Shown here piece after piece: positions 4,899-59,868 of a stretch of DNA of 64,000 bases. How positions within the stretch are numbered: the first letter of the stretch is position 1; each line of letters opens with the position of its first letter. Where the stretch lies: the IMG/VR virus record IMGVR_UViG_3300010048_000002, positions 5,617 to 69,616 of that record, one strand, 5' to 3'. Under the pieces are notes generated by a model, which did not search any database, was not told the origin of the DNA, and saw nothing but the letters and a program-made list of their open reading frames with translations. Origin of the DNA: a virus (Duplodnaviria; Caudoviricetes). The translations under genes and the position numbers were made by a program.

Positions 4899-5999
4899 AT
4901 GCAAAACGACGAAAAACTCAATGATATCAATGCTTTAGAGGTACTTTCAGGCGATGTGCCCGCGGCGCCGTCTACTGCGATCGCGCGCGTGAAGGCTGTA
5001 GGGGGGCGCCTAGTGCGCGAGGCGCCGCGCGCGCTGCCCGCGGAGGCTGCTTTCGACTCGCTTTATTCAGTGCGCAGCCAAGAGACGTACCGCGAGGGCC
5101 TCAAAAGGGCCCTTTCGTGCCTCAATCCCGACGCTGCTAAAGCGCCCGAGGGGTGGCGACAGTACCCTTGGCACCAATTGGAGTACACGGACATCGCCTT
5201 TATCGCTGGCGAGCTCGCGAAACGGTACCGCCGCGCCACCGTAGCGGTGACGCTTTCAGCTCTAAGGTCGGTATGGAAGCACGCTTGGAAGCTCGGCTAC
5301 GTCGATTGGGACACCTGCGAGCGCATGCGTAGTGTCAAAACACCCCGGGGGAGCTCCCTGGCGGCTGGCAGAATGCTTGCGGGGGATGAAGTAGCAGCAC
5401 TTCGGCGCTGGGCCGGTGGGCTCGAGGGACCCCAAGGGGCGCTCGTGAGGGCCTGTTTCGCCTTGATGATAGGTGCCGGACTGCGCGCGGAGGAGATCTG
5501 CACGGCGCCGGTAGAGGCGTGGGGGTTGGATGATGCCGCCGGAGGCGTCGCGGGGGGTGCCGGCGCTGCTGGCGACGTCGCCGGAGGCGTTGCTGGGGCC
5601 GTCCGGGTGGTCGGCAAGGGCCGGAAGGAGCGCGAGGTGCCGGTGGGCGCCAGCGAAACAGCCTGCCTTGCAGCTTGGCTGAAGGCGCGCGCAGAGCTGG
5701 CGGCTGACGCACGTCGCAGGCCATGGCTGTTCCTCCGTCTCGAGGGGAAGAAGAGGTACGAACCGCTCAACTCGCAGTGGCTAGGGCGCCTCTGCGCCGA
5801 CGCCGCGAAGGGCGCGGGGCTGAAACCGTTCACGCCGCACGACTGTCGGCGTACGTTCGCCTCGGCGTGCCTCGACGTCATGGATCTCGCGACGGTGCAG
5901 CGCTTGATGGGGCACGAAAGCCCCCGTACGACAGCGCGGTACGATAGGCGTCAGGCGTCGGCAGACGCGGTGGCGCGCCGCAAGGTCACTCTTTGGTAA
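4899..5999 (+). CDS. Tyrosine recombinase (Xer/Cre-like resolvase or integrase)
   Basis: Catalytic set GLRAEE, VVGKG, HDCRR, MGHES, ARY; GAGGA SD; no obvious arm-binding N-terminal domain. Confidence 0.9.
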   Translation: MQNDEKLNDINALEVLSGDVPAAPSTAIARVKAVGGRLVREAPRALPAEAAFDSLYSVRSQETYREGLKRALSCLNPDAAKAPEGWRQYPWHQLEYTDIAFIAGELAKRYRRATVAVTLSALRSVWKHAWKLGYVDWDTCERMRSVKTPRGSSLAAGRMLAGDEVAALRRWAGGLEGPQGALVRACFALMIGAGLRAEEICTAPVEAWGLDDAAGGVAGGAGAAGDVAGGVAGAVRVVGKGRKEREVPVGASETACLAAWLKARAELAADARRRPWLFLRLEGKKRYEPLNSQWLGRLCADAAKGAGLKPFTPHDCRRTFASACLDVMDLATVQRLMGHESPRTTARYDRRQASADAVARRKVTLW

Positions 6000-6513: not shown

Positions 6514-7545
6514 TCATTGGGTAGGTGTAGCGCGTCGGCACCAATCCAACCAGCTCTCCGCTTGCCCAGCGGTGAGCTCGACGTCATGTGCTTCGACGCG
6601 CGCGATGTAACTAGGGGGTACCGACATCAGCTCCGCGAGCTGCTCTTGGCTCAAGCCAGCCTTATCGCGCAACGCTCGGAACTTGATGCCAGGATGCTTC
6701 GCGTTGCGAACGGCGTCGGGGTGCACGGCGGTATTCAGCACGCCAGGCTTAGCACTGGCGAAGTTGGTGAAGGTGTAGCCTTGCTCTTGGAGATGCCTGT
6801 CGAGTGCACTCCTGTAGCCGAAGTTGCCCCAGTGCACGAGCCGCGACGAGACGTCGAGCCAGCTCTGCCCCCCGATCGCCTTGAAGCGCTTACCGATGAC
6901 GATGTCGTCTGATTGACAGATACCGTTGGCGTCGATGGCGTTGTCGAAGAGCATCATGCCGGGGTAGGCGCTCAAGAGTGCTTCGATGGCGCGGCGGCTC
7001 ATTGCGAAGAAGCCGCCCCCCACCCAATCAGAGGTGACGAACTGATGCTCCCTGTAGACGAAGCCGTCGATGTGCTTATCGGCGTATGCGTAGAGAGGCA
7101 GGTGACTGCAGTACGCCGAGGCGCCATCTTCGAGACATTCCTCCCAACTTTTGCTGTCGTCTTTGCAGGCGGCGCGCAAAGCGCGGGGATTGATCTCGCG
7201 ATGGGCGTAGGAGCCCCCGCTGAAGTCGGATACGCCTTCCAGCACGGTGCCGACGACGGCTTGCGCGTCCTCCAAGCGGAATTCGGTGTCGTCGTCGAAA
7301 CTGAAGTAGACGTCGTTGTCGGAGCCGCCGCCGCAACGCGCATGGGACCACCTGAGAAAGTCGTCAGCCATCAAGCTGCGCGCCATGTAGAGAGGGCACT
7401 TACTGCTTCTGGTGAGCAACGGCGCGTCGACACCGGTAGCTATAAGCCAATCACGGAAACCGTAGGCGGCCTTCTCGATTCTGTCGGACAAGCCCCGGAG
7501 GCTGGGGCAGCACATGAAGACGGAGGGGCGGGGGGCGTTACTCAT
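6514..7545 (-). CDS. Glycosyltransferase-like (GT-A) domain fused to a C-terminal XRE helix-turn-helix
   Basis: YFSFDDD, GGGFFAMSRRAIEAL, SDDIVIGKRFKAIGGQSWLD..LVHWG; HTH FRALRDKAGLSQEQLAELMSVPPSYIARVEA. Confidence 0.6.
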   Translation of the reverse strand: MSNAPRPSVFMCCPSLRGLSDRIEKAAYGFRDWLIATGVDAPLLTRSSKCPLYMARSLMADDFLRWSHARCGGGSDNDVYFSFDDDTEFRLEDAQAVVGTVLEGVSDFSGGSYAHREINPRALRAACKDDSKSWEECLEDGASAYCSHLPLYAYADKHIDGFVYREHQFVTSDWVGGGFFAMSRRAIEALLSAYPGMMLFDNAIDANGICQSDDIVIGKRFKAIGGQSWLDVSSRLVHWGNFGYRSALDRHLQEQGYTFTNFASAKPGVLNTAVHPDAVRNAKHPGIKFRALRDKAGLSQEQLAELMSVPPSYIARVEAHDVELTAGQAESWLDWCRRATPTQ

Positions 7546-15338: not shown

Positions 15339-15378
15339 ACGGGCGACTCGATGTCGCCCGCCGCCTAGCTGATGCTGA

Positions 15379-16674
15379 TTACGAGGCCCAGCCGACCGCG
15401 CAGCCGCACTCAGAGCAGATCTGCGCCTGGAGGTGCGGATCCGCCTTGATCTGGTCTGCGAGGGGCTCGGTGATCTCGTACCCCTTGACCTCGACGCTCA
15501 TGAGGCCCGTTCCGCCCTTGAACACGTAGTGCTCGGCGTTCTGGGTCTGAAGCACGTCGACGCCGTCCGTCGAAAGCTCGTCGAAGGTCGCGCCCGCGCC
15601 CGCAGAGATGAGGCTCTGGCTCGGCGTGAGGGAGTAGGGCGGGGTGCCGCCGAAGCCTCCGGTCGCGTCGAACTGGTTGCGGAAAAGGATCGCTTCCTGG
15701 TTGTTGCCGTTGGCCTCGAAGATGAGCCCCGGCGGAACGCCCGGCTTGAGGATGTACGGCTGCTCGAGGGTCCGGAACTCGGAGTTGCCCTTGAGCATGC
15801 TCCGGAGGTCCATGCCGCCGAACGTCGCATCGGCGATGACGTCGTCGAAGGGGCGGAACTTGCCCTGGGTCTCCGTCGAGGTCGTCTGCGCACCGAGGGT
15901 GCCGACGCGCACGAGGTTCTGCCAGAGGAAGATCTTGTTGCCGCCGATCTTCGTCGGGTCCGTGTACCGCAGGTTGGTGCGGTTCACGAAGTCGACGATA
16001 GACACTTGGCTGGACGAGGCGCTGCCTTCCTGAGCCGCGGGCGGCGTGTACGCCGTGTCACGGAGCTGCTCGTCCATGATGTTGATGAGGCTTCCGTAGG
16101 TCCAGCGGAGATTGTAGCCGCGGACCATGTGCCAGAAGCCGTAGTTGACCCACCAGCCCCACTGGAGGACGGCGCGCCGCATGTTCGCCTGAACCTGCGG
16201 GGCCGTCTGGGTACCGCCACCGTAAACGAGGTTCGTCTGGTCGAGGACGGTGTAGTTGTCGGGGCTGTTCGGCATCGCGACCGACGAAGCAGGCGTCGGA
16301 ATCGCGTTGCCCTGCGCGGTGAAGCACAGAGGCTCGGGCTCGAGGTGCACGCCGATGGCGCAAGCCAGGACGTACGTCTGGAACTCGCCGTTGATGAGGC
16401 CATCGGTCGAGTAGACGTTGTCGACGCCCGCGGGGTTGGCACCGGAACCCAGGATGCTGATCTGGTTTCCGAGCACCTGGCCGACGGCGCTGTTCGTGAT
16501 GGGGCCCTCGAACTCCCACTGCACCTTGGCCACCGTGGGCAGGGCGTAGATGGGGCACGAGGTCGCGCTCTTCATGAGCGAGACGATGTCCGCCGAGGCG
16601 GCGTTCTGCCCGAGCCCAGCACCGAGGGTCAGCCTCGGGTTCTTCTGGGAGGGCCTACGAATCATGGTAGCCAT
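15379..16674 (-). CDS. Putative major capsid protein
   Basis: 431 aa, beta-rich, strongly GC3-biased codons, followed by a strong hairpin, central in the virion block. Fold not verified. Confidence 0.45.
   Translation of the reverse strand: MATMIRRPSQKNPRLTLGAGLGQNAASADIVSLMKSATSCPIYALPTVAKVQWEFEGPITNSAVGQVLGNQISILGSGANPAGVDNVYSTDGLINGEFQTYVLACAIGVHLEPEPLCFTAQGNAIPTPASSVAMPNSPDNYTVLDQTNLVYGGGTQTAPQVQANMRRAVLQWGWWVNYGFWHMVRGYNLRWTYGSLINIMDEQLRDTAYTPPAAQEGSASSSQVSIVDFVNRTNLRYTDPTKIGGNKIFLWQNLVRVGTLGAQTTSTETQGKFRPFDDVIADATFGGMDLRSMLKGNSEFRTLEQPYILKPGVPPGLIFEANGNNQEAILFRNQFDATGGFGGTPPYSLTPSQSLISAGAGATFDELSTDGVDVLQTQNAEHYVFKGGTGLMSVEVKGYEITEPLADQIKADPHLQAQICSECGCAVGWAS
15389..15423 (+). other. 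Protospacer: perfect match to array spacer 57914-57948
   Basis: cagccgaccgcgcagccgcactcagagcagatctg is the exact reverse complement of the spacer (35/35). Confidence 0.97.
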
Positions 16675-18388: not shown

Positions 18389-18451
18389 GAGCTTATCCGT
18401 AGGCGCATGTACGCCTTACAGAGGACAGCGTAGCGCGTTACGCGTCAGACG

Positions 18452-18940
18452 CTAGGGTGCGACGATGCCGCGGTCATCGAGATGGCACCACGAGGGCATA
18501 TCGAGGCGATAGACGGCAGCGGCGCCAGTGCCGCGTCGGTACAGCGTTGCGGCGCCGGAGCGAAAGAGGCTCGCAAGACTTCTGTTGCCGAACGTGTGCT
18601 CGTAGACGCCGACCTTGTACTTCGCGCCCTCACGCCAGTAGAAGATGCGTTTCACGGAGCCGACTAGATGCCACTGGCACAAGTCAGCGGGGGGCACGTC
18701 TGTCAACATGCCTTCGCGCAGCTCGTAGTCGGCGCCGAAGTAGTCACGTGCCGGGGCATCCTTGTGAAGCCACGCCTTGTCGCCTAGCGACTCGAATCTG
18801 GCTACCAGCAAACTGCACGCCGGCCACACGACGCCTTCGGGATCATGAAGCAAAGCCGCGTCTCGATGAGGCTCCACATCGCTACTTTCGTGCATCTCGA
18901 AGAGCACATCGAAGCCTTTGGCGATGAGCCGCGAAGCCAT
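18452..18940 (-). CDS. Hypothetical protein in the virion block
   Basis: Protein-like ORF ending 2 nt after the upstream gene. Confidence 0.45.
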   Translation of the reverse strand: MASRLIAKGFDVLFEMHESSDVEPHRDAALLHDPEGVVWPACSLLVARFESLGDKAWLHKDAPARDYFGADYELREGMLTDVPPADLCQWHLVGSVKRIFYWREGAKYKVGVYEHTFGNRSLASLFRSGAATLYRRGTGAAAVYRLDMPSWCHLDDRGIVAP

Positions 18941-18942
18941 CG

Positions 18943-20766
18943 CTACTTCTTGCTAGCCGGCTTGCGTTTGCTCGTGATGCCTTCGACGGCATTGCGGAGC
19001 CCGGGGGCTATGATCGACAAGCCGTATATGGCGGCGGCTGAGACAGCCACGACGGCGACACCTTTGACGATGGATGACACGGTGTCCGCAGTAGTCGGAG
19101 GCGGAACGTAATCGGGGTTACGCTGATCGTCGTTGCGAAGGGGCGGCAAGTCGGGGGCCTGGTTACCCCCTGTCGCCTTGCAGTGCGCATCCACGAGCGC
19201 ACGCCACTTCTTGTAGATTCTCTCGAAGTCGTAGCCGCGCTGAATCTCCGCGTCGGCATCGCAGAGAGGCATGTCCGCGTTGTACCAGTTCATGAACGCG
19301 ACGTGGTCGGCGATGTAGTCGTACTTCTGTGTGAGCGTGAAGCCGTCGGGGGCACCGTTGGGGAAGGCGGGGGTGGCGGCGCAGACGCTCTTGTCCTCTT
19401 TGCACAGAGGACAGTTGTCGACATCGTCGGTGAGTTGGTCCCATCCGACCAAAAGGCGAGTCTTCTGCCCCACCAGAACGTCGATGTTGCAGTTGATGCC
19501 GGGGATGTGCACCTCGCCCACGCCCGTGGCACCGACACCGGCAGGCAAGGAGCAAGCGAGGTTCACCTTGAGATCCCAGAGCTGCCTGGCACGGGCGTAA
19601 TCCTTGAGCCGTGAGTAGTCGCTGGGCCCCAACTGTTGGCTACTGAAGGCTTGCCAGTCGGCGTAGGCGCTCTGCAAGCCGGCGGCATCGCTGGCAGCGA
19701 GAGTGGCGCAGCCTTGCGCTGTCGACACCGTCGTCTGCCACTGGGTAGTGAGTGAGGCCTTGAGCCCGTCAACAGCCGCCTGGTCCGGCGCACCTTGGCC
19801 GATGCCGCTCGGGAGCCATCCGAGACCCGTGTTGTACTCGATGCCGTGAGCTCCGGAGCGGAGCCACAAGCCGCCGCGATAGATCGTGGCGCCGGGCGCA
19901 GGACGGCCGACGGTGATGCCCCCGGGCACGTCGGGGGCGGGCCGATTGGAAGTACCGGTGTCGTCGCCGGGCGCCGGTCTGTTGGAGACGCTGATGGGTG
20001 TGCCTTCAGGTGCGGCGCCGCCGGCAAAGACACCGCCGCCGCTGGCGAAGACACTGCCGTCGCTCGCGTGCCTCTGTTGTGATGCGCCCATAGTGATTAG
20101 TTGTGCCCCCGAAACGCCCACGGGGCCAACCGGTGCGGCCTTCAGGGGATCGTAGAAGCTCTGCCCGGGAACATTCGGGGGGGCGCCTGCGGACCCCAAG
20201 GGGCCCACGGAGTAGGTGTTGTTGGCCCCGTCGACGCCGAGCTTCGTGCCGTTTTCGTCGAAGGCGACGAGCAAGACGTGCGCCTGCTCGGGGAAGGGCT
20301 GTACGCAGATCATCACGGGGATGGCTAAAGACAGAATCATCGCGCCTAAAGCGGCTGTCGCATCGTCGCAATCGCCTCGCCTGAGACACAGCCCCGCTTT
20401 GCCCCTGAGGCACATCGTCGCGCTCGGGGATTGCACCTGCTCCGTCTTCCCGGGGTCCGAGGCGTAGAGCACAAGCGAGCGGTACTCGTCGAGGCAGGCT
20501 TGGCAGATCTGCCTCACACTAGGCTTCTTGCCCCGCCCGTCGAAGCCAGCCTTTCTAACCGCCTCGGCGGCGATGCCCTGCACGTCTGGGTCGTTCTGGC
20601 CCTCTCGAATCTTCTGAGCGATGGCGTCGACGCTCTGGCCGGCGCCTACGGGGCCATCGACGTAGGCCTGCACGTCGATGCGCGCGCCCTCCGCTTGTGC
20701 CCGAGGGATGCCGGGCGTGAAGCTCTGGCTGAGCCCTAAGCCGAAACTACGCACGCCATTACGCAT
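18943..20766 (-). CDS. Transglutaminase-like cysteine protease domain protein with C-terminal TM anchor
   Basis: GDCDD (20362-20376), AHVLL and VDGAN form a candidate Cys-His-Asp triad; C-terminal TM plus basic tail. Confidence 0.7.
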   Translation of the reverse strand: MRNGVRSFGLGLSQSFTPGIPRAQAEGARIDVQAYVDGPVGAGQSVDAIAQKIREGQNDPDVQGIAAEAVRKAGFDGRGKKPSVRQICQACLDEYRSLVLYASDPGKTEQVQSPSATMCLRGKAGLCLRRGDCDDATAALGAMILSLAIPVMICVQPFPEQAHVLLVAFDENGTKLGVDGANNTYSVGPLGSAGAPPNVPGQSFYDPLKAAPVGPVGVSGAQLITMGASQQRHASDGSVFASGGGVFAGGAAPEGTPISVSNRPAPGDDTGTSNRPAPDVPGGITVGRPAPGATIYRGGLWLRSGAHGIEYNTGLGWLPSGIGQGAPDQAAVDGLKASLTTQWQTTVSTAQGCATLAASDAAGLQSAYADWQAFSSQQLGPSDYSRLKDYARARQLWDLKVNLACSLPAGVGATGVGEVHIPGINCNIDVLVGQKTRLLVGWDQLTDDVDNCPLCKEDKSVCAATPAFPNGAPDGFTLTQKYDYIADHVAFMNWYNADMPLCDADAEIQRGYDFERIYKKWRALVDAHCKATGGNQAPDLPPLRNDDQRNPDYVPPPTTADTVSSIVKGVAVVAVSAAAIYGLSIIAPGLRNAVEGITSKRKPASKK

Positions 20767-20781
20767 GCGCCTAGTGTAGCA
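20767..20781 (-). promoter_or_regulatory. Extended -10 promoter, leaderless
   Basis: TGc-TACACT-6 nt-ATG. Confidence 0.55.
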
Positions 20782-21264
20782 GGCGCACGGGCGTCAAGCC
20801 GTTTTCTAGCGCTTGCCGCGCAGTCTACTCTCCAACACGGCGCGCTGCTGAGCCTGCACCGCCGCTTGGCGGGGGTCTAGCCCGCCAGCCGCGTCGAGCC
20901 CCGCTCCTGGCACACGGGGCAAGGCGCGCGCCATTCCTACTTCGTCGAGATCCCAGCCGGCTTGACGAAGATGCCCGACGTCGACGGCCGCGAGCACCAC
21001 TTGACCATTGGGGGCTTGCACCGGCCAGGCGAGAAGCGCTTGCCCCGAGTGCCAGTAGAAGCACACGACTTCCTGCGCAAGGAACTTGGCCTCGACGTCG
21101 GCAGGCACATCCTGCTGTACAATCGGCTCCACTACGCCTTCGGGCTTCACCTTGAAGCCGGCCACATCGTAGCCGCGTACGCGCTTACGCAGATCCGTAA
21201 CCGCGACGGTAATCCACATAGCCGGTATGTAAAGCGCAGCGCGCTAAACGTCAATGCGGCGGGG

Positions 21265-21798
21265 CTAAACGCCTGCGGTGAAAGCGGCTCGTGTAACACC
21301 TAGCGTCGCCGTGGCGACAGCGGCTACGAGCATCTTCGTTGTCGCAGGTACCGTAATAGCCGTCGCGACGACGGCGGCGTCTTGAAAGAGCTTCGTCGCA
21401 TCGGCATCGAGCTGCGTCAACGCGGCGAGGCTAGCGGGCGGCTTCGTAGGCGTACCGTCAGGCCTCGTAAGCATATTCAGTGCATCGTTGGCGACGGCGT
21501 TGCTGTCCGGATCCCAAATGGGCCACACGAGGGGATGGTTGACGAAGGCATCAGCTCGCAAGTTGTTGGCGGCGAGTTGCAAGAGCTGAATCTGTGTCTT
21601 CAGGTCGCCCCACGGGTCCACGGAGGGTTTCACGTTGTTGCCGCCGCCGCCGGGTGTCGGCGTCGGCGTCGGCGCAGGCGGCGCGCCGCCCTGCGGTGTA
21701 GACTTGCTCGTCGCGTGCGCAATAAGCGCGATGCCGCCTACGGCGAGTATCGCGAGCCCTCCGACAGCCAGCAGCGTATCACGCGTCTCGGCGCGCAC
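21265..21798 (-). CDS. N-terminal TM-anchored virion protein
   Basis: LLAVGGLAILAVGGIALIAH followed by a PTPTP linker. Confidence 0.5.
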   Translation of the reverse strand: MRAETRDTLLAVGGLAILAVGGIALIAHATSKSTPQGGAPPAPTPTPTPGGGGNNVKPSVDPWGDLKTQIQLLQLAANNLRADAFVNHPLVWPIWDPDSNAVANDALNMLTRPDGTPTKPPASLAALTQLDADATKLFQDAAVVATAITVPATTKMLVAAVATATLGVTRAAFTAGV

Positions 21799-21804
21799 GT
21801 GTCT

Positions 21805-22263
21805 TTACCCGACGTGGCGGCGCATCGCCTTGTGCACCGGCGACTTCTTGTGGAAGAGCAGCCATCCGAGACCGCCGACAGCGACGACGCCACCGCCAAC
21901 GACTGCCGCTTTGCCGGCCGTCGACATATTGCCCCACCAATCGGCCAGGGTGCCTTTGGCGAGCGTCATCCCGTTGGGGCAATTGCCGTTACCGTCTGAC
22001 GGCGCGATGTCGGGCACACCCGGCACGGTGCCGTTGCTGACGCAGGCCAAGACGCACTTACCGGTGGCGTCAGAAATCGAATTGGGGCCGGCGCATATCT
22101 GCGACGAGTCGCCTACGCCTCGTCTGATGCCGGCGCCCGACAGCCCGGCTAGCACCGCGCTCGCTGCGCCTCTAGGCGTGCCGGCGGAGCCGGTCAGAGC
22201 GATTGCCTTCGGAGCATCGCCTTCACACGGAAGACCCTTGTCACAACTGGAGCAGCAACCCAT
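21805..22263 (-). CDS. Cys-rich protein with C-terminal TM anchor
   Basis: MGCCSSC; tail VVGGGVVAVGGLGWLLFHKK; TATTCT 7 nt before the ATG at 22263. Confidence 0.5.
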   Translation of the reverse strand: MGCCSSCDKGLPCEGDAPKAIALTGSAGTPRGAASAVLAGLSGAGIRRGVGDSSQICAGPNSISDATGKCVLACVSNGTVPGVPDIAPSDGNGNCPNGMTLAKGTLADWWGNMSTAGKAAVVGGGVVAVGGLGWLLFHKKSPVHKAMRRHVG

Positions 22264-22743
22264 GTAGGTGAGAATACGCCTACGCACTAGAAGGCGCAAA
22301 CGAATCACCGTCGACGGCGATGCTTCAGCCTACTTACGACGATGTCTGTCAGTGACGCCAGAAGCAGCAACCCGCCAACGGCGCAGAGCACAAGAAGGCT
22401 GTTCAGCTCCATAGGGATGTTGTCTAAAACATCCGACATTACGTAAGTTTACATCAAGACGCGTAGCGTGTCATCCCAGGCCTTGGACACGAGCTTCTTG
22501 TGTTCCTCGCCGACGGTGAAGCCGATGATGTGCCCCCCGAACCACGGCCCCGCCATCGGAAACGGCCTCCAGACGAAAAACGGCACTCCGTAGGCCGCCG
22601 CCGCGTCGTATGCAGTGCGGATGCTCGTGGTGTCGGTGCAGTCGAAGAAGAACAGTTGCCGCCCGCCGAGCGTCTTGAAGTAGTTGTTGGTGCGATTGCG
22701 CTTACGGCTAGCGCCGCCGTTGAGACTTTTGAGGTGCATGCCT

Positions 22744-23952
22744 CTATCGATGCAGCTTGCGCGCTTCGCGTTTCACGACGCCGACGACTTTGCCCCCCGT
22801 ATTCTTCCACACCCATTCGGCGGCCTGGCCGTATGCCCATCCCTTGACGAGGGCGATGGCGCCGATGGTAAGTGCAGTCGCCCCCACAAGCCCTGCCCCC
22901 GCAACAGCCACCTTCGTGCTTGTGGATGTAGTGGTGGTACTCACAAGCGGTTTTGCCTTGATACCACGGGCGATTACGGTCGGGTCGATGTTGAAGGCCA
23001 GCGGGCCGTTATTCACGGTGATGGGCGGACGGCTTCGGAGTTGGCCCGTCGAGTCACCCGCCCCCGACAGAATCCAAGAGACGAGACTCGGCTGCCACGA
23101 CCCGTCGGGTGCTTGCGCGGCGCCGGGCCCGCCCGCATTCCCTTCATAAGGCGCGAACGATAGAGACTGCGACGCAGAGTGCGCGGCGTGCCACACATTC
23201 GCAGCGGCGGCGAGCAGGTCTTGCGGCGGCACCGTCGGCCAGCAATTGACCCAGTACTGAAGATTCTTGAGCATGAGTACGCGTACGTACTCCTCGAAAC
23301 GTGTCGGCGCAGCGTACTGCGTACCCGGTACGTTGCGCACACAATAGAGGAGCATCTGCAAGGCGGAGTCTTGCCATACGTTCCCTAGCGTCGAGGCGTT
23401 CGGGGAATACGGAGGACGTCCCCCGGGCATGACGCTCCCACCTTCTGACCGCCCGAAGACGATATCGTCGTAGTCGGCCAAAGAATCGATCTCGATCCAG
23501 TTGGCTGTGTCGGTCTGTCCGTACGGAATCTGATCCATGCCTATGCGTTGCAGACCGCAGTAGTTGTACGTGGGTGACGGCGTGGAGTAGAGCCCGAGGG
23601 CTGTGAAGAGCCCCTGAAGGGCTGTCGATAGCGCTAGTACGCCGGTGCCGATGGCCGTCATGGCGGCACCGGCCACGGGGCCAGCCGTCAGCGTCGCGAT
23701 TCCCCCGATGCCGGCGATGAGCGCCGCGTCCGACGGAATGTTCCCGATGTCAATCGACGTCGCGAGGCTCACTGCCGTACTCGCGTCCTGAGCGGCTGGC
23801 GGTACCGTCTGCATCATCGCGCACCTCACGTCGTTCGGGAGTGCGTTGAACGAGTCTGCTCCTGGAAAGCTACCGCCCAGCGTACAGGTGGCATCGCCCA
23901 GCCCTACCTGCGTGCTGAGGTGGGGCATAAGCACGAGCTCGCGCGGGTGCAT
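22744..23952 (-). CDS. Virion protein with C-terminal TM anchor
   Basis: TATGCT-6 nt-ATG start at 23952; tail VAVAGAGLVGATALTIGAIALVK. Confidence 0.55.
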   Translation of the reverse strand: MHPRELVLMPHLSTQVGLGDATCTLGGSFPGADSFNALPNDVRCAMMQTVPPAAQDASTAVSLATSIDIGNIPSDAALIAGIGGIATLTAGPVAGAAMTAIGTGVLALSTALQGLFTALGLYSTPSPTYNYCGLQRIGMDQIPYGQTDTANWIEIDSLADYDDIVFGRSEGGSVMPGGRPPYSPNASTLGNVWQDSALQMLLYCVRNVPGTQYAAPTRFEEYVRVLMLKNLQYWVNCWPTVPPQDLLAAAANVWHAAHSASQSLSFAPYEGNAGGPGAAQAPDGSWQPSLVSWILSGAGDSTGQLRSRPPITVNNGPLAFNIDPTVIARGIKAKPLVSTTTTSTSTKVAVAGAGLVGATALTIGAIALVKGWAYGQAAEWVWKNTGGKVVGVVKREARKLHR

Positions 23953-23996
23953 GCCTGTAGCATACGTCACCGACAAGGGGTAAGCTAACCAACGAC
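23953..23996. promoter_or_regulatory. Divergent -10 pair
   Basis: TATGCT (minus, 23959-23964) and TAAGCT (plus, 23981-23986), each just upstream of an ATG. Confidence 0.45.
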
Positions 23997-25019
23997 ATGG
24001 ACACTTCAGAAAAGGTTCTGGTAGGCGTCGGCGCGGTGGCGCTTTTACTGCTCGGCGCCGTGGCACTCAGCGGCAACAAGCCTAGCGCCTCTGGCGGCGG
24101 CGCCTCCGGCGGCGGCGGCGGCGCACCTGCCGCAACGCTTCCGGCCAACATCCCCCTCGTCGTCGGCAAGAGCATCAGGCTGACGCTCCCCGACTTGCCC
24201 GCTAGCGGTCAGGTTTGGACCATGATGACGTCGGCGCCCAGCATCGTGCGAGTGATGGACGTCGGATACGCGCCCGGGGTCCCGGGGCTTCACGGCTTCA
24301 CGCTGACGGGCGTCGCCGTCGGAGGGGCATCCGTCACAGCCACTCTGATGAACGCGACGACGGGGCAACCGGTCACTGGTGTTGCGCCGCTGAGCGCGAC
24401 TGTCAGCGTCGTCGCCGGCATTGGCGTCGGTACGCCACCGCAACAGAGTGGGGGCGGGCACGTCTTCTTCCCTCCTGGTGGGGGTGTCAAGTTTACGCCG
24501 CCCAGCACCACTAAAGGGGGCACTTCGTCGTCATCGTCTCCTGGCGGCGGCTTCAAGGTCAGCACGGGGCCGACTACGGCTTCCGGTAATCCCAGTACCA
24601 TCGCCGCCCCTCCTCCGCCGCCTCCACCTCCGCCGCCTCCTCCACCGCCACCGCCTAAGGTTGTCGCGCTCACCTGGCCTCAGGCAATCGACCACACAAT
24701 TTCCAACGGCCAGCAGCTCGATAGCGATACCGTCTTCCTGAACGAGGGCGATACGCTCGTCGTGGACATCACTGCTGATACGACGTCGCTACCGGCGTGT
24801 CAACAGTGGGCCGGCTGCGGAGTGTGGGGAGTGACATCGACGCCCCCGACGCTCGTGTGGGTGCCCACAGGGCTCGCAACGTCGTCGGCCTACGCGCTCG
24901 TCTACATTGGGGCCGCGAGTTTCAGCGCGGTGCAGTCGGGGCAGGGCACGCTGGTGCTCACGAAGACGTTCCAGAACGGGGCCGTCATCACGTGGAGCAT
25001 CCCCGTCGTTGTCGCCTAG
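23997..25019 (+). CDS. Membrane-anchored protein with two Ig/chagasin(I42)-like domains and a poly-Pro linker
   Basis: N-terminal TM; LVVGKSIRLTLPDLPASGQVW..GYAPGVPG..FTLTGVAVG; the only plus-strand gene in the virion block. Confidence 0.55.
   Translation: MDTSEKVLVGVGAVALLLLGAVALSGNKPSASGGGASGGGGGAPAATLPANIPLVVGKSIRLTLPDLPASGQVWTMMTSAPSIVRVMDVGYAPGVPGLHGFTLTGVAVGGASVTATLMNATTGQPVTGVAPLSATVSVVAGIGVGTPPQQSGGGHVFFPPGGGVKFTPPSTTKGGTSSSSSPGGGFKVSTGPTTASGNPSTIAAPPPPPPPPPPPPPPPPKVVALTWPQAIDHTISNGQQLDSDTVFLNEGDTLVVDITADTTSLPACQQWAGCGVWGVTSTPPTLVWVPTGLATSSAYALVYIGAASFSAVQSGQGTLVLTKTFQNGAVITWSIPVVVA
24451..24485 (+). other. Protospacer: perfect match to array spacer 57843-57877
   Basis: ggggcgggcacgtcttcttccctcctggtgggggt is identical in both places (35/35). 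Confidence 0.97.
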
Positions 25020-25311
25020 CGCTTAGCAGCGGCAGCCTTCTTCACGTCTGCGTTAGCTGCGGCGAACCCCATAGCCATTGCGTCGGTAAACGGCGCATCG
25101 CTCTTGGCCGCCTCGATCAGTCCATCCAGCTTGTCGGCGAGGTCGCGGAGCTTTGCCGGAATCTCCAGGGGGGCTACTTGCGGCAATGCGCCGTGATACG
25201 AAGCGCTAAACGACTCGCAGTGCGCGGTGTGGAGCTTGACGTCGATGTCGATGTAGACGGGGTGCGCAGGCACCCTTCCACGAGCAATCCTCTTCGTAGT
25301 CTTCTTAGCCA

Positions 25312-26814
25312 TTACAGACCTCCGTTGCCTTCGGCGCCTTCCGGCGGCGTGTTGTTTGCGGCGACGCTTGCATCGACGGCGCCTTTGGGAATCTCGCGCA
25401 CGACTTGCGCAGGCTGCTGTTGCTGTTGCGGCGCACCCGCCATGCCTGCCTTGTTGGTCAGGTTGCCGAGCGCCTCCATGAACTTGCCACCAAGTTCCAG
25501 GGCCTTCTCTGCCAACCCGGGGTTCGCCATCAAGAAGCCTTCGCGACTGAAGCTACCTGTCTCCTTGTCGATAGCGTACTTGGCGGGGTGTCCGAGGAAG
25601 CTCGTTTCGGGGATGGGCACCACCTCGAAGGGCAGGCTATCTTCGGGCTTCGGGGGCTGTACTACCGGCTCCGCGACGAGAGGCGGCTCCGGCGTCTCGC
25701 CGTTTGGCATGTCCGGCTCGCCGTAGACCTCATTCAAGTCGCGTGCGAGCTGGCGCAGCTCCCGCCCCAAACCCACCACCGTCTTGAAAGCTGACACCCC
25801 CGCCTGAAGCTCGGAGGCGACACCCGTCGCCTTGGCTGCCTGCGGCACTTGCGGCATCGCGCCAACGCCGGCCTGAGGCTGTTGCTGGGGCACGACACCG
25901 CCGACGACGCCGAGGCGACGTAGCAAGCCGACCATGCGCTCCTCCCAGTTGTCGGGTGGCGCAGCGCCGAATCCTTGCGGCGCCGGGGGCACCGGCGCCG
26001 CAGACGGCGGCACCAAGCCTGCGGCGATGAGCTGCTGAAGCTGGCCTGACAGATACCCGACTTGCTGTCTCAGGTACCCTACCTCACCATCGGCGCCGAA
26101 GCCGGCAGCCGGTGCCGGGGGCGCAGCCGGATACACAGGCGCGGGCGCGGCGCCGACGCCGACAGGCTGGCGCCGAGGAGGCGGCGCCATCGGCGTCTCT
26201 TCTGCGCCGTATTCGTCGTAGGGGCTTTCGACAGGCATCGAGACGCCGCCATACGGCCTCCGAGTCCGCATGTTGGCTTGCGCACGGCGCAGCCCGATGA
26301 TCTCCTCGCTGCTCGGCATCGACAAGCGCCCCCTGCCGATGATTCTGCCGCTCGTCTTCCAGACGAAGCGCAGCTCGTAGTCCTCGGGGCCCCTTCCGGC
26401 GGGGATGTGATAGTAGTCTTCGACAGCGAGGCGCAGCGCATCGCCGGGGGACATCCCCTTCCCTCCGGCGACAAGAGAGCCGTCGATCTTGCCGGGCAGT
26501 ACGACGGCGCCGGGGCTGAACCTGACCACGTTGACGTCGATGTCGTACGGCGTCTTCGGGGGCACCATCTTGGGGATGCGCTGAAGAATCTCCGGCCAGA
26601 GGAGCTCCGCCTCACGGCTGTTCCAGCCCTCGCCGGGAGGACGGTGAGTGCCGCCCTTGTCATTGCGCTGTTTGCGCTGCTTCGCCTTTGCGGCCTTCGG
26701 CGCAGCGGCAGTCTCTTGAGGGGTCTCCTGAGTCGAAGTCTCGTCGTCTTCGTCGACTTCCTCTTCCAGAGGCTCTTCGTCGAAGTTCTCCAGTGACTCG
26801 TCGGTAGTAGCCAC
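25312..26814 (-). CDS. Pro-rich virion or scaffolding-like protein with acidic N-terminus
   Basis: 500 aa with repeated GFGA/GVGA linkers. Confidence 0.5.
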   Translation of the reverse strand: MATTDESLENFDEEPLEEEVDEDDETSTQETPQETAAAPKAAKAKQRKQRNDKGGTHRPPGEGWNSREAELLWPEILQRIPKMVPPKTPYDIDVNVVRFSPGAVVLPGKIDGSLVAGGKGMSPGDALRLAVEDYYHIPAGRGPEDYELRFVWKTSGRIIGRGRLSMPSSEEIIGLRRAQANMRTRRPYGGVSMPVESPYDEYGAEETPMAPPPRRQPVGVGAAPAPVYPAAPPAPAAGFGADGEVGYLRQQVGYLSGQLQQLIAAGLVPPSAAPVPPAPQGFGAAPPDNWEERMVGLLRRLGVVGGVVPQQQPQAGVGAMPQVPQAAKATGVASELQAGVSAFKTVVGLGRELRQLARDLNEVYGEPDMPNGETPEPPLVAEPVVQPPKPEDSLPFEVVPIPETSFLGHPAKYAIDKETGSFSREGFLMANPGLAEKALELGGKFMEALGNLTNKAGMAGAPQQQQQPAQVVREIPKGAVDASVAANNTPPEGAEGNGGL

Positions 26815-26835
26815 GTGTCTTGCCTCTCTCCGCCT

Positions 26836-27627
26836 TTAGGCGAATGTCGGTGCTTGCGCGAAGATCTTCGAGCCGAGCTGCGTCTGGAAGTAGTTGGTGA
26901 GCAACCCGACCAGCGAACCCTGCGTATTCACAGGGAAGCGGTACTGATAGCCGGGCGTCGCCACCACGGCGGGGGCGTTGACGTACCCCACACCGCCGTC
27001 GAGCAGTTGCAGCGCGTTGATCTCCATGCTGGGGATGATGATAGCCCCGGAGCCTCCGGTGGAGCCGGCGATGACGATGATGGGCATCCCGACGTATCCA
27101 GAGCCGCCACTCGTCACGCCGACGCTGTTGATGTGCCCGCCGGCTTGTGTGGCTGTCAGGACTGCCGCGACACCGCCAGGGCCCAGCCCGCCAACCGGCG
27201 TCGCCGTGATGGTGCCGCTGTAGTTGGCGCCGGAATCCACGATGGCCAACGCGTGCACGTCGAGAGTGCAGCGAGCCATCGCGGGCCTCGTCGGCGCGGG
27301 GTCTCCGGGATTCGTGACGAAGCTCAAAATGGGCGGCTCCGCGAGCAACGTACCGGCGGTGAGCAGCGTCAGCGCTGACACCGGGGCACCTTCGCTACCA
27401 GTGAGTATTGCCGCGGTGATAGCGGGGTTGACGCCCACGTATTGGAACACCAAGGTGCGGATGATGGGCGCCGTGCCGGCGGTCGTGTCGGTCGTAAGCA
27501 CCAGCCCCAGCTTGTTGAACAAATCAACCGGTAGCGGCACCGCGGCAAAGGCGGCTGCCATGGCCGCAGTTGTCGCGGAGCCAACCGGCAGTAAGTCGTA
27601 TCGCAGGGTAGCCGTCGTGAAACTCAC
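26836..27627 (-). CDS. Gly-rich structural protein with GSGY-type repeats
   Basis: INSVGVTSGGSGYVGMPIIVIAG, LLDGGVGYVNAP, IVDSGANY. Confidence 0.55.
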   Translation of the reverse strand: MSFTTATLRYDLLPVGSATTAAMAAAFAAVPLPVDLFNKLGLVLTTDTTAGTAPIIRTLVFQYVGVNPAITAAILTGSEGAPVSALTLLTAGTLLAEPPILSFVTNPGDPAPTRPAMARCTLDVHALAIVDSGANYSGTITATPVGGLGPGGVAAVLTATQAGGHINSVGVTSGGSGYVGMPIIVIAGSTGGSGAIIIPSMEINALQLLDGGVGYVNAPAVVATPGYQYRFPVNTQGSLVGLLTNYFQTQLGSKIFAQAPTFA

Positions 27628-27630
27628 CGC

Positions 27631-28227
27631 TTATGCCTCCTCGTCGGCATCGTCACCGACGTCAACGCCGTCTTCGAGCGCCTTGGCGATATCCTCGAGC
27701 GTCATCGCCTTACCGGAGGCGTCGACGCCGCCCTTGGCGGACAGCTCGCGTAGAAACTCCACGGCTTCCTGCCTACCCTCCAGGCGCCCCACGTCGCGCA
27801 CCTCGAGTTCCGCCTCCAGGCTCTCGAGCTCGTCGATGACGGCATTACGGAACGTCTCGAGGCTCATCGACTCGACGCCGTAGGAGGGGTATGCCTTGCG
27901 CACGACGTAGCAAAGGAACGGGCCCCCCTCGAGAGGGGCGGCGTAGGCGCGCACCTCGTCGCCGGCATCGAACATCGCCATGACCAGGTACTTCGAGTTG
28001 ACGGGGACGGGCTTACCCCACACCCACATGAGGACGACACCGTCGATGCCAACCCAGTTGAAGCTCATGAGCTTCCTTAGGTCCTTCATGTCGACGCCGG
28101 CAGCTTCCTTGATCTGCGCGGCGAGCTGTGAGGGAGTGAGCGCCACGGGCGCCGTCGGGGGCACCTGCGGGGCAGATGTTTCCTGTGCGGCGCTCGAAGG
28201 CGCCGTGTCTACCACCGGCTGCGTCAT
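27631..28227 (-). CDS. Hypothetical protein
   Basis: TACGCT-7 nt-ATG; acidic C-terminus. Confidence 0.5.
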   Translation of the reverse strand: MTQPVVDTAPSSAAQETSAPQVPPTAPVALTPSQLAAQIKEAAGVDMKDLRKLMSFNWVGIDGVVLMWVWGKPVPVNSKYLVMAMFDAGDEVRAYAAPLEGGPFLCYVVRKAYPSYGVESMSLETFRNAVIDELESLEAELEVRDVGRLEGRQEAVEFLRELSAKGGVDASGKAMTLEDIAKALEDGVDVGDDADEEA

Positions 28228-28292
28228 GGGAGAGAGCGTAATCGCCTACGCCCTTTACGTCAATAGGCTGGGCACTTTATTACGCGCAAAAA

Positions 28293-29525
28293 CTACGCGC
28301 GCTTAGCGCGAAAGACCTTACGCAGTCGGATACTAGCGAACTGATCGAGTCCGATGACGACGTGGTCCACCAGTTTGAGATTGTTGCCGAAAGGCTTACG
28401 CGCCTTCTCGATAGCGCGGGTGAGATCCTTGTCGGCTTGACTGGGCGTCGCCTTGCCAGAGGGATGGCAATGAACCACTGCGAACCCCTTTGCCTGGCGC
28501 GCCAGTGCCGCGGCAAGACTTGCGCGCATGATGTCGTCGATGCCGACGTTGACGCGATCAATCTGCCCGCGCGCCACCTCATCGATGCCCCTCAGGTGGC
28601 CGTGCAGGTCGAGAGACACCACGAGGAAGACCTCCTGGGGCTGCTCGTTGCAGTAGCCCTTCAGGAGCTTGTAGATGGCCTGGGGGGTCGTGATGGGCCC
28701 GATGGTATCCGCGAGCTGGGCACAGGCGCGGAACTTCTCGGCGTCGACGCGCACGGCCGTGAAGGGAGCGCACAGAGGTGCCGCTGGCGCCGCCGGAGGC
28801 GCTACCGACGTTTCCGGCGTCGGCGCCAGACTGCTAGGCAGCGAAGCACCTGCCTTGTTGTGCTTCTCGGCACCGCGCTTCGCCTGCGCCACGTGGTCGT
28901 AAGACTTCAGCTCGGCGCCGTCTAGCGTAAGCACCCACGGCAGTTTGCCTTCGCGCCTCGAAACACGTTCCTTGCGCTCGTGAATGCGGTAGACAGCGAC
29001 TCCGTTAGCGGCCCGGGCGAATAGCCCGCTCTTGTCGCGGTGCCACTTGAGGGGCCTCACGGCGCCCCGGCGCGCGTCAGCGGCGACGACAGTCTGCGTC
29101 ACGGCAACAGCGCCGGTAGCACCACAGTCTTTCGCCGCCGGTTGTGCACCACGGATGGCTTCCGCCTCCAGCGGCAAGTTCAAGTTGTGGGCGAAGTCGG
29201 CGTCCTTCGAGATGTGCCACTTGCCGCCCGCGTGGAACATCGTGTGGCGGTGCCACTCGGCGCCGGCCTGCCTGTAGATGTAGAAGTAGCTCTGCGTCTT
29301 AGGGTAGCGGTGCACGTAGACGGCGTGCGAGAAGCCTTCGGCTAAAGCGTGGTCGAAGGCGTCGTCGACGCTGGGGAAGTCGGCGGCAGTGTCGCGCGCG
29401 CAGGCTTCACCGGCCGGGCAGGGGCCCATGGGAACCTCCGGGGGATGCGTGTGGGGACACTGGGGACCGGCGGGACACTCACCCGCCTTGCGGTGCTCGT
29501 ACACTACAGCTACGCCTTGCGCCAT
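28293..29525 (-). CDS. Protein with C-terminal JAB/RadC-like domain and long N-terminal extension
   Basis: EVFLVVSLD, VVHCHPSGKATPSQADKDLT, LVDHVVIG. Confidence 0.85.
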   Translation of the reverse strand: MAQGVAVVYEHRKAGECPAGPQCPHTHPPEVPMGPCPAGEACARDTAADFPSVDDAFDHALAEGFSHAVYVHRYPKTQSYFYIYRQAGAEWHRHTMFHAGGKWHISKDADFAHNLNLPLEAEAIRGAQPAAKDCGATGAVAVTQTVVAADARRGAVRPLKWHRDKSGLFARAANGVAVYRIHERKERVSRREGKLPWVLTLDGAELKSYDHVAQAKRGAEKHNKAGASLPSSLAPTPETSVAPPAAPAAPLCAPFTAVRVDAEKFRACAQLADTIGPITTPQAIYKLLKGYCNEQPQEVFLVVSLDLHGHLRGIDEVARGQIDRVNVGIDDIMRASLAAALARQAKGFAVVHCHPSGKATPSQADKDLTRAIEKARKPFGNNLKLVDHVVIGLDQFASIRLRKVFRAKRA

Positions 29526-57663: not shown

Positions 57664-58052
57664 GTTGCAGGCTTCAAGGCGCCGCGCTGCCTTTTACGAG
57701 ATGGCAGCGGCGCACACTAGCCGCAGCGTAGCGTCGCAGTCTCAAAGGCGCTGCGCTTGCCATTACCACGTGCCGTATTGCGGCACTATCCACAGTCTCG
57801 TGTACGTCGCAATCTCAAAGGCGCTGCGCTGCCATTACCCACGGGGCGGGCACGTCTTCTTCCCTCCTGGTGGGGGTGTCGCAGTCTCAAAGGCGCTGCG
57901 CTGCCATTACCACCAGATCTGCTCTGAGTGCGGCTGCGCGGTCGGCTGGTCGCAGTCTCAAAGGCGCTGCGCTGCCATTACCACCTGGCCGGCGGTGTTC
58001 GTCACGTGAAGCCCGCGTCGCAGTCTCAAAGGCGCTGCGCTGCCATTACCAC
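57664..58052 (-). CRISPR. CRISPR mini-array: 5 conserved repeats, 1 degenerate trailer repeat, 5 spacers (32-36 nt)
   Basis: Minus-strand repeat GTGGTAATGGCAGCGCAGCGCCTTTGAGACTGCGAC starting (plus coordinates) at 57733, 57806, 57878, 57949, 58017; degenerate copy at 57664 (26/36). The CGCAG/CTGCG stem near the 3' end orients the array. Confidence 0.95.
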
Positions 58053-58071
58053 AGGTCTCTCAGCTCCCCAA

Positions 58072-59868
58072 TCATTCCGCCGTATTGCCGACGTCTTTGC
58101 GAGCACCGTCTTTCCCAGCAGCCCGCTCGCGGGCGCGTGCCTTGCGTTTAGCCCACGCGCTACCGCCTACGTCTGCGACGGCGTTGTCTTTTTCCGCTGC
58201 GCAAGCGCCCCCCGTGTTTTCCTCGTTACGCCACTGCTCGCTGACGACTTCGAGCCACGTATCGTCGGAATCTTCAGGTACCCCGTGAGGGCCTTTCCAC
58301 ACCGCCTTTACGGCATCCTCTCCGAAAGCGTTGAGGAGCATGTCGCGTAGCTTCTGCGGTGACACCGTCGTGCGCCTGTCGCTATCGTCGCCGAAGCGAG
58401 CCTCGAGCGATAAGTCTCTATCGGGCACGATGACCGCCTTGTAGCGTCTGGCTAGCCCCGCAGCCCAATTGCTGTAGTAGTGGTTCCTCCATCCGATACC
58501 ATTGCGGCGACTACCGGCTTCGTAGTCGAGGAGGTGAGCGTCGCGTAACTCCCACTCTTGTAGGAGCTCGTAAGCATCACGCGCGGCATCAACCTTGTCT
58601 TTGCGCCAGCGTAGCGCCAGCTCGTAGAACCTGTCCTGCGACTTCCAGAGGTGCAGCACATTGCCTACCTCGCGTAACCACGTGGGCAGCTTGTCGGCGC
58701 TGTGCTGAATCTTTTCCGCCAGCGCCGGGCGTAGGGCGTTGAGGAGCGTATCCCTCACCGAGCGGATGCCGTCAGCTTTGCGGATGGCGCCCACCATTCT
58801 AGAAGACATCAGCAGCTCGCCGGTGGCGCCAAACGAGTCGCGCCACGAGGCGACACGCATGGAGCCGTCGTCAAGCGGAGTCCACAGGAGCTCCACGGCG
58901 ACGGCACCGCTGACGTCGGGGCGGGGTTGAATCTTCTGCGGGTCGTTGAGGGTAATCTCCACGGTCCAGACTTCGCGTCTGGCGAGTCGGCGGCACGATA
59001 CACGTACCCACTGCCACTTGGCGGCGTTGGGGATTGCGCGATGAAGCTTGATGGGCCACGAAGCCCAAACAGCGCATCTAGTGTCGTTGGCGACGCGCAG
59101 CTTCAGCACACCGTACTGGGAGTATTGCTGTTTGCCCCCGTTGGTGCCGCCATGCAGCCTCGCGGGCTCCAATTCGAGTCTTACCCAGGCGTCTTTGCCT
59201 GCTAAGACGTCGGCGGTAGTGACAGTGCGCCCTTGGATGTGCATCGACACTTGCTGGTCACCGAGCCACCAGCAGCTCTTAGGATTCGATACGGGAAATG
59301 CCTGCCCTGCGCGGGGCCCCTTGACGAATCGCGGGTCCGACGGAGTGACGGCGTCGCGCTCGTAGAGGGGCATAGCGCGTACTTGCGTCGCCGCCGCCTC
59401 GATGGTTTGATAGTTCGCCCAGGCGCCGGGCGACAACGGCGACAACGCGCGCGCGTCACGTCGGATACTCTCGTCGAGAAGCGTGATTCGCGCAACAGCA
59501 TCGCCGGCAGCGGCGCGCGCCTCGAGATTGACACGACGTAGACGGCTACGCTCGGCGTCAGAAGCGTCTTCCGGCACAGACGCTTCAGCGACGCCGGGGC
59601 AATGTGATGCTGCCTTTTCGGCGGCGCGACGCGCCTTATAGAGCTTTCCGATTGCCTCACGTAGAGGCTTGCCCTTGGAGGCTTTGACGAGGGCTACCGC
59701 GTCGGCGACTTCTTGCGTGTCGTGCAGCGCACGCAAGGCGGCACGCCGCCCCCTTTCGATTGCCACGAGCTCGTTGCGGTACTCGTGGCACTGGCGCATG
59801 AGGACTCTCACGCGCGCTTCGCCGTCGATAGGCGGAAGTAGGCCGAACTGGTAGACGCGGATAGGCAT
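58072..59868 (-). CDS. cas12m: Type V-M (Cas12m/V-U1-like) effector with degenerate RuvC
   Basis: 598 aa; N-terminus RVYQFGLLPP; PIKLHR, LHLWKS, RNHYY, terminal AWAKRK. RuvC-I reads AVAVELLW and RuvC-II AVIVPDRD. Abuts the array. Confidence 0.8.
   Translation of the reverse strand: MPIRVYQFGLLPPIDGEARVRVLMRQCHEYRNELVAIERGRRAALRALHDTQEVADAVALVKASKGKPLREAIGKLYKARRAAEKAASHCPGVAEASVPEDASDAERSRLRRVNLEARAAAGDAVARITLLDESIRRDARALSPLSPGAWANYQTIEAAATQVRAMPLYERDAVTPSDPRFVKGPRAGQAFPVSNPKSCWWLGDQQVSMHIQGRTVTTADVLAGKDAWVRLELEPARLHGGTNGGKQQYSQYGVLKLRVANDTRCAVWASWPIKLHRAIPNAAKWQWVRVSCRRLARREVWTVEITLNDPQKIQPRPDVSGAVAVELLWTPLDDGSMRVASWRDSFGATGELLMSSRMVGAIRKADGIRSVRDTLLNALRPALAEKIQHSADKLPTWLREVGNVLHLWKSQDRFYELALRWRKDKVDAARDAYELLQEWELRDAHLLDYEAGSRRNGIGWRNHYYSNWAAGLARRYKAVIVPDRDLSLEARFGDDSDRRTTVSPQKLRDMLLNAFGEDAVKAVWKGPHGVPEDSDDTWLEVVSEQWRNEENTGGACAAEKDNAVADVGGSAWAKRKARARERAAGKDGARKDVGNTAE

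Follow-up and report, generated by a model that had tools for sequence, protein, structure and literature searches.

A standalone Cas12m-family module on a temperate virus, with three of its five spacers matching the carrier's own genome

The 64,000-nt stretch of DNA analysed here (the window) comprises bases 5617-69616 of the one 69,616-bp contig that makes up IMG/VR virus record IMGVR_UViG_3300010048_000002 (Caudoviricetes), and it carries a gene for a Cas12m-family effector followed at once by a short CRISPR array. We find that gene and array form a genuine virus-borne type V-M-like module, and that three of the five spacers are exact copies, each 35/35, of sequences in the carrier's own genome. 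The explanation that we favour, tentatively and at somewhat below an even chance, is that this is a real, binding-only module in which spacers derived from self or kin persist as unbound or weakly bound passengers, the working targets being other elements. Positions are those of the window unless the whole genome is named, and the parts of the module are as follows.

58072..59868, minus strand: Cas12m-family effector, 598 aa (P0001), assigned by profile, fold and column counts
57664..58053, minus strand: CRISPR array of six 36-nt repeats and five spacers, the repeat reading GTGGTAATGG...CTGCGAC on the minus strand
57985..58017, minus strand: spacer 1, newest, nearest the effector, no target found
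57914..57948, minus strand: spacer 2, exact copy of self-site T1, 35/35
57843..57877, minus strand: spacer 3, exact copy of self-site T2, 35/35
57770..57805, minus strand: spacer 4, copy of self-site T3 (whole-genome 4366-4400), 35/35, mismatched at guide position 1
57698..57732, minus strand: spacer 5, oldest, no target found

Hidden Markov model and structure searches both place the effector in the Cas12m family, in agreement with the original prediction, made from the letters of this stretch, of a Cas12m-like protein. The single sequence matched the solved Cas12m 23vw_A at E=6e-21. A family profile built from 42 of 75 metagenomic homologs matched 23vw_A at E=1e-75 and 8pm4 (GoCas12m), 8hhl (MmCas12m2) and 8hio at about 1e-34, the Cas12m match spanning profile positions 2-474 of 545, so that sequence homology covers most of the length. 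An AF2 model (pLDDT 89, pTM 0.81) contains the WED, sickle-like REC and RuvC domains of the family and superposes over its full length on Cas12m structures in Foldseek (8hhl, Cas12m2, E=4e-19 and template modelling (TM) score 0.64/0.65; 8pm4, GoCas12m, TM 0.63), with TM at or below 0.35 for all other Cas12, TnpB or Fanzor proteins. Searches of Pfam, PHROGs and NCBIfam with the effector returned no match.

The active-site region sets this subfamily apart. The RuvC-I residue of the effector is Glu326 and its RuvC-II region reads P482-D483-R-D485; Glu occupies RuvC-I in 36 of the 42 subfamily members, whose RuvC-II region follows the pattern [S/P]-D-[R/Q]-D, whereas the described Cas12m classes have H, D or N at RuvC-I (PMC10442227). 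Where the TNB zinc-finger insertion is expected, the AF2 model has about 14 residues between the last RuvC strand and the next helix. The last 130 aa of this effector contain 1 Cys and 1 His, and no more than 3 Cys occur there in all but one of the 42 members (the exception, P0073, has 6 Cys), so a TNB domain with an HCCC zinc finger inside RuvC, otherwise a mark of Cas12m, was not found. The subfamily is a distinct Cas12m variant, with Glu at RuvC-I and without TNB. Judged from sequence, the RuvC and TNB regions appear more eroded in this effector than in characterised members, and binding without cutting is plausible; DED-type Cas12m proteins likewise do not cut. It is the RuvC-I Glu, the missing zinc finger and the canonical repeat pseudoknot (below) that make a non-cutting effector plausible, and the binding-only behaviour proposed earlier stays a prediction.

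The first repeat starts 18 nt past the stop codon of the effector gene, which confirms the earlier description of a 598-aa effector just before a six-repeat array. Copies starting at 58018, 57949 and 57878 are intact, those at 57806 and 57733 are lightly mutated (1-2 changes each) and the terminal copy at 57664, furthest from the effector, is the most degenerate. From this pattern of decay and from comparison with the family, the array is transcribed in the direction of the effector gene. Spacers 2 and 3 each follow an unmutated repeat (57949 and 57878), as had been claimed, and the repeat ahead of spacer 4 carries a C-to-T change that retains pairing as G-U.

Eleven repeats of the family align without gaps and share an invariant GAC end. 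They fold into a pseudoknot of two crossing helices, in which columns 9-11 pair with 20-22 and columns 14-18 with 30-34. Across the 11 repeats 93% of cells are paired, with 17 double-sided changes; none of 500 shuffles equalled this, and slid controls gave pairing of 36-47% only. Exactly these pairings are reported for the CRISPR RNA (crRNA) scaffold of PmCas12m (-28..-26 with -15..-17; -23..-20 with -3..-6). The locus therefore has the crRNA-only guide of Cas12m, with the repeat pseudoknot at the same positions and supported by covariation. It also has the mobile-element setting without an adaptation module: the carrier is a virus with an integrase, and Cas1 and Cas2 were not found anywhere in its complete genome, which extends the earlier observation that neither lies nearby. 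Rfam and promoter/terminator scans around the effector-array locus gave nothing informative.

Both self-matches of the original prediction were confirmed at 35/35, and a third was added that lies outside the window. Spacer 57914-57948 is identical to 15389-15423 read from the other strand; spacer 57843-57877 equals 24451-24485, the identity running 3 nt into the repeat; and spacer 57770-57805 matches whole-genome 4366-4400, 1.2 kb before the window start. No comparable self-match within the window arose in 100 shuffles. The newest and oldest spacers had no match in the carrier genome and no exact match in IMG/VR, and the newest had none in JGI metagenomes either, at 32 nt or with a 22-nt seed. 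These two spacers, being without a target, yielded no protospacer-adjacent motif (PAM) for this effector. The two self-sites inside the window and their genes are these.

15389..15423, plus strand: self-site T1, in the last 15 codons of gene 15379-16674, guide-sense 5' flank GCC
15379..16674, minus strand: T1 gene, 431 aa, clade hallmark protein and candidate jelly-roll capsid protein
24451..24485, minus strand: self-site T2, nt 455-489 of gene 23997-25019, guide-sense 5' flank GAC, the same as the repeat end
23997..25019, plus strand: T2 gene, 340 aa, sole opposite-strand gene of its block, with a sub-threshold chagasin/Ig-like signal

Each of the three guides runs antisense to the mRNA of its matching gene, so the earlier claim of antisense guides holds for the added one as well. 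The sites lie in mid-gene or at the 3' end and are not promoter-proximal. That the targets are virion genes, as was first proposed, stands in part. The T1 product is a candidate major capsid protein: its AF2 model (pLDDT 80) finds its best, weak fold matches among jelly-roll capsid proteins of membrane-containing viruses (Foldseek E 0.01 or worse; VIA Z of 5-6, at most 6.1), and its gene has the highest third-position GC content of the genome (GC3 = 0.91). The T3 site, on the other hand, is found 300 nt inside the gene of a Dda-like SF1 helicase, which is a replication gene. The T1 protein had no match in Pfam, PHROGs or NCBIfam, and Protein Atlas offered nothing usable for the T1 or T2 proteins; nor did the five large open reading frames (ORFs) of block 15379-26814 match a virion family in Pfam or PHROGs, and none appears in the Pfam gene tables of loci L080-L084. 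A relative retains a gene at the opposite-strand position of the T2 gene.

Several further observations concern the T1 gene. Its protein has more than 200 homologs, mostly on contigs of 60-90 kb, and is the mark of a large, as yet unannotated clade of soil viruses of that size (L080-L084) with an integrase, a helix-turn-helix (HTH) protein and a GroES-like gene. Two hairpins directly 3' of its stop codon (window 15250-15378) persist, though altered in sequence, in kin at 70-81% nucleotide identity, and are probably a terminator or attenuator of a highly expressed gene. Ahead of the window, short GC-rich tandem repeats occur at genome 521-746 and 2866-2926 (L076), where two minus-strand ORFs end or shortly beyond; a stretch of 16-17 nt in them agrees with the T1 spacer with one mismatch, a likeness that is most likely a low-complexity coincidence.

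The flanks of the self-sites bear most directly on whether these spacers act. In guide sense the 5' flanks are GCC (T1), GAC (T2) and GCG (T3, counted from the spacer boundary). A 5'-TTN/YTN motif is present at 0/3 of this virus's self-sites, none of which has a T at -2 or -3, whereas the characterised Cas12m PAMs are TTN, YTN, TTV or YTTS, all with T at -2. The GAC that precedes T2 is also the invariant end of the repeat and should therefore be a non-PAM, since otherwise the array DNA itself would be bound. At T3 the guide is mismatched at its first position, and PmCas12m loses activity when even one base is mismatched in the 12 nt next to the PAM. A variant in which the PAM was lost in the carrier and kept in its kin was considered and rejected for T1, whose flank in kin is also GCC.

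Relatives of the module make the same distinction from the other side. A family member was found at 17 IMG/VR loci, with an array right after the gene in 12, and the gap between effector and array was 18-23 nt in 6/6 relatives checked. Ten whole IMG/VR records (1.1 Mb in total) were compared with this virus; they have almost no genes in common with it except the module, which is therefore a mobile cassette. The exact spacer matches among the compared records were the three self-matches of this virus, one self-match among the nine spacers of virus G001, and one match of virus G002 against virus G009. In the last case the array spacer (L001:11906-11942) equals G009:32474-32509 (L025) at 36/36, in a small gene and with a TTG flank, and both viruses carry Cas12m; as far as sequence can tell, it directly documents the targeting of one virus by another within the subfamily.

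A second relative lies in a metagenome-assembled genome (MAG) of Labilithrix sp. (Myxococcota), where a family member and an 11-repeat array adjoin a tyrosine integrase (L086:1243-6654) and are followed by host genes for a histidine kinase, an NtrC-like regulator and DnaK. The two oldest Labilithrix spacers are perfect matches (36/36 and 37/37) to chromosomal genes that lie elsewhere in the MAG, on another contig (L087:1423-1458 and L088:9381-9417), and 5'-TTC flanks both sites. One site falls in a VWA-domain gene beside a Glx-tRNA synthetase, the other in a Hydrolase_4 gene that closely follows the gene of an ECF sigma factor. The locus may exemplify an integrated element that silences genes of its host, provided that the MAG was binned correctly. 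Together these relatives provide three traceable non-self targets, with flanks TTG, TTC and TTC, 3/3 of which are TTN; at a T frequency of about 0.18, the chance of three TT pairs is about 4e-5.

Self-sites of two other carriers also lack TTN. At the G001 self-site the flank is CTG and guide position 1 is mismatched. The second, on a 90-kb JGI contig (L077), came from a search that reached 10 kb to each side of the effector gene, which was also made for a 233-kb ENA contig (L079). One of at least 14 spacers on L077 (12526-12560) matches 9978-10012 at 33/35, at the junction of thyX and the effector gene, flanked by TCG and mismatched at guide positions 3 and 5. The site covers the effector's own ribosome-binding site and GTG start, so the match could be autoregulation or another tolerated self-copy.

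Two of these relatives show unusual arrays. The 153-kb IMG/VR virus G003 (L037-L044) has two family members, one of them broken by TGA, and carries copies of the repeat by dozens at many intergenic sites beyond the array, for example at 37.1-37.8, 39.4-40.1, 72.7, 85.5, 91.5, 96.0-96.2, 100.5, 103.8-104.5 and 105.9-107.2 kb. On the 233-kb ENA contig the array (L079:11979-12672) contains a duplicated, same-order block of at least three spacers, and a TnpB (OrfB_IS605) lies 2 kb downstream.

By analogy with other Cas12m systems, from which we infer both mechanism and guide processing, the effector gene and the array would be expressed as one transcript, and the pre-crRNA would be cut into guides made of the pseudoknotted repeat handle and about 17-20 nt of spacer. 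The complex would bind PAM-flanked double-stranded DNA without cutting it and so block transcription or replication of rival mobile elements. The three matching spacers would have been drawn from the virus's own lineage, either from its own DNA or from near-identical kin in an infected cell, and they would persist because the effector cannot cut and because the resident sites have no usable PAM. Any self-spacer aimed at an essential gene beside a functional PAM would not have lasted, and those that did would be tolerated passengers and not a hard-wired self-repressor.

Several observations weigh against this explanation. Three out of five is a large proportion of exact self-copies if these are neutral passengers, and the explanation needs a route by which spacers enter an array without Cas1-Cas2. 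The T1 window is at the 97th percentile of conservation, and in module-less kin whose T1 proteins are 76% and 89% identical the site is retained at 34/35 and 33/35. Guide polarity is the same in this virus's three guides and in the relatives' three PAM-bearing targets (6/6 by ORF calls, about 1 in 32). The PAM-reading part of the protein is altered as well. MmCas12m2 reads T(-3) through W152 and Q197 and T(-2) through Y141 and N156; of these residues W and Q have conserved counterparts in this effector, W150 and Q212, and the PAM helix of this effector reads W150-A-N-Y-Q154. This WANYQ helix and a 3-aa insertion are found only in this effector and in P0002, whereas about 38 others have WG[ST]YL, a group that includes members with TTN targets. 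With such a helix the TTN rule may not apply to this effector, whose PAM, on the evidence of these residues, may have changed.

These last three points, namely the near-identity of T1 in module-less kin, the shared polarity and the uniquely altered helix, speak at the same time for a different explanation. This would make the effector a zinc-finger-less Cas12m with a novel, non-T-rich PAM that binds T1, T2 and possibly T3, and thereby acts as an RNA-guided immunity repressor against self and kin. The resident genome of a lysogen and incoming genomes of kin would both be silenced at the capsid-like operon, at the helicase and at the opposite-strand (membrane-protein) gene, and the effector would take a CI-like role that locks lysogeny and gives homoimmunity, as a programmable counterpart of CI-type homoimmunity. 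We hold it less likely, as the main rival of the favoured explanation, and note what agrees with it. The seeds at T1 and T2 are exact, the repeat scaffolds are intact or changed with pairing preserved, and G stands at -3 in all three flanks, counted from the spacer boundary. The subfamily offers a same-cell precedent in the two Labilithrix host genes and in the L077 effector start region. Cas12m is known to block transcription within coding regions; in published work it silenced from promoters as well as coding regions, and which strand served varied with the phage.

The carrier's lifestyle agrees with such a role too. Its genome (63% GC, with nearly all genes on the minus strand) encodes a family-A DNA polymerase-UDG fusion, a VapE-type primase-helicase, a PD-(D/E)XK exonuclease, RadC and an SNF2 helicase, together with the following two adjoining genes.

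4899..5999, plus strand: tyrosine integrase, Pfam Phage_integrase, E=8e-21
6514..7545, minus strand: 343-aa protein with a C-terminal HTH_3/XRE domain, adjoining the integrase, kept in kin, a conventional repressor candidate

From the integrase and the HTH protein the virus is temperate, so silencing of its own genes would be survivable. The same HTH protein tells against an RNA-guided repressor, since a conventional candidate is already present; the original statement that no canonical stand-alone CI-like repressor was recognised in the window is corrected by this CI-like HTH_3 protein, which adjoins the integrase. The sites carry no T at -2 or -3, against the T at -2 of all known Cas12m PAMs; if GAC served as a PAM, the array would be bound too; the first guide position is mismatched at T3; and the sites are not at promoters. 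The closest kin (T1 protein 89% and 76% identical) have no effector-family member in the protein database, which argues that the module is not a conserved regulatory circuit. The prediction that the virus uses the module as a programmable repressor of its own particle genes accordingly keeps its standalone module, its exact self-matches, a temperate carrier and same-cell targets in a relative, and is weakened by the lack of TTN, the GAC flank, the T3 mismatch, the position of the sites, the absence of the module from the closest kin, the CI-like candidate and a helicase among the targets.

Conservation of the sites themselves differs from one to the next. At T1 the mismatches in kin fall only at guide positions 15 and 24, and T1 would be a good guide for kin exclusion if a permissive PAM is granted. 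The T3 window has average conservation, and T2 had no counterpart in the sampled kin.

Action on single strands, independent of a PAM, has a slim chance. Here the guides would pair with mRNA, or with the coding strand where transcription bubbles or replication forks displace it, and damp expression, which suits three guides that are all complementary to the target mRNA and coding strand and needs no PAM-like motif. The self-sites of G001 and L077 have the opposite guide polarity, and agreement of 3/3 in one direction is expected by chance in 1 case in 4.

It is very improbable that the coincidence of guides and sites is an assembly artefact, with the array contributed by one strain and the intact protospacers by a co-assembled sibling that is truly targeted. 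The contig derives from a metagenome, and the locus was found in one public soil run, a DNA run available as Logan contigs only, in which rare variants could be hidden; no RNA run was listed for it. Against this, the first 123 bp of the contig are repeated at its end, giving a circular assembly that IMG/VR classes as a virus with direct terminal repeats and that CheckV rates 100% complete, and with an overlap of 123 nt the assembly cannot have been misjoined through repeats of 35-38 nt. Logan contigs over 9001-29000 have an even depth of 9-12x, except in one low-complexity stretch, and show no alternative letters in T1 or T2. They break inside T1 (15394/15417) and T2 (24459/24480), as is expected of a k=31 graph if the 35-38-mer is also present in the array at comparable depth. 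The circular assembly and the depth, letters and breaks of the Logan contigs make a two-strain co-assembly unlikely. Capture of a host array by recombination at a protospacer was rejected, the module lying far from all three sites and between viral genes.

Virus-borne mini-CRISPR arrays in SPV1 and SPV2 were reportedly described by Medvedeva et al. in 2019 as taking part in interviral conflict. As summarised in PMC11656645, these are short viral arrays without adaptation genes and with spacers from their own lineage, as here; there the arrays use host Cas proteins and the carrier's protospacer is altered or missing, whereas this virus brings its own effector and its sites are intact and identical. 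The pattern of a kin-exclusion array, with the carrier's own site altered, was not found here: the carrier matches at 35/35, and it is the sampled kin that are mismatched at T1 (33/35 and 34/35) and have no match at T2.

Among effectors the closest comparison is with the type V-M proteins MmCas12m2 (8hhl), GoCas12m (8pm4), PmCas12m and 23vw (PMC10442227, PMC11013384, bioRxiv 10.64898/2026.03.26.714355). The module resembles them in its size of about 600 aa, its fold (TM 0.64), its single-effector locus and its 36-nt repeat with the same pseudoknot, in having neither trans-activating CRISPR RNA (tracrRNA) nor adaptation genes, in a RuvC that by sequence reads as non-canonical and in its occurrence on mobile elements. 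It differs in a RuvC-I Glu that is absent from all four described triad classes and in the subfamily-wide lack of the zinc-finger TNB; this member further differs in its changed PAM helix and in matched sites that have no T-rich PAM and lie in its own genome. Myxophage MV-1 (bioRxiv 10.64898/2026.09.14.751636) likewise carries a Cas12m of about 610 aa beside an array without cas1, cas2 or cas4. For MV-1 no protospacers were found and a DED triad is reported, whereas here there are three targets, all self.

Two natural systems behave as the RNA-guided repressor just weighed would. The self-targeting type IV-A system of Pseudomonas oleovorans (Guo et al. 2022, cited in PMC11656645) combines a binding-only effector with guide matches in the same cell, and TldR (PMC10705468) is a nuclease-free effector with guides to genes of the same cell. 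Their sites are flanked by a PAM or target-adjacent motif (TAM), often lie near promoters and are conserved. The sites of this virus have neither such a flank nor such a position, and a conserved, PAM- or TAM-flanked site at a regulated gene was not found here. The Labilithrix relative, with its proper PAMs, does fit the pattern of a natural repressor.

Phage-borne Cas12m, viral mini-arrays directed at kin and natural binding-only repressors are already known. Three things are new: a closed genome with three exact self-copies among its spacers, a Cas12m subfamily that has Glu at RuvC-I and no TNB, and the contrast between targets in non-self or host DNA, which have a PAM beside them, and the self-sites, which have none. 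The known role of Cas12m on viruses and plasmids is binding-only silencing of rival elements, and regulation of its own carrier has never been shown in nature. Because the complete genome puts guides and targets on one molecule, it provides a clean natural test of whether a non-cutting CRISPR effector can be co-opted as a viral repressor. It also poses the question of how viral arrays acquire spacers without Cas1-Cas2 and how self-copies survive in them. If the self-sites are inert, the case would document a filter by which only PAM-less self-spacers survive on a virus.

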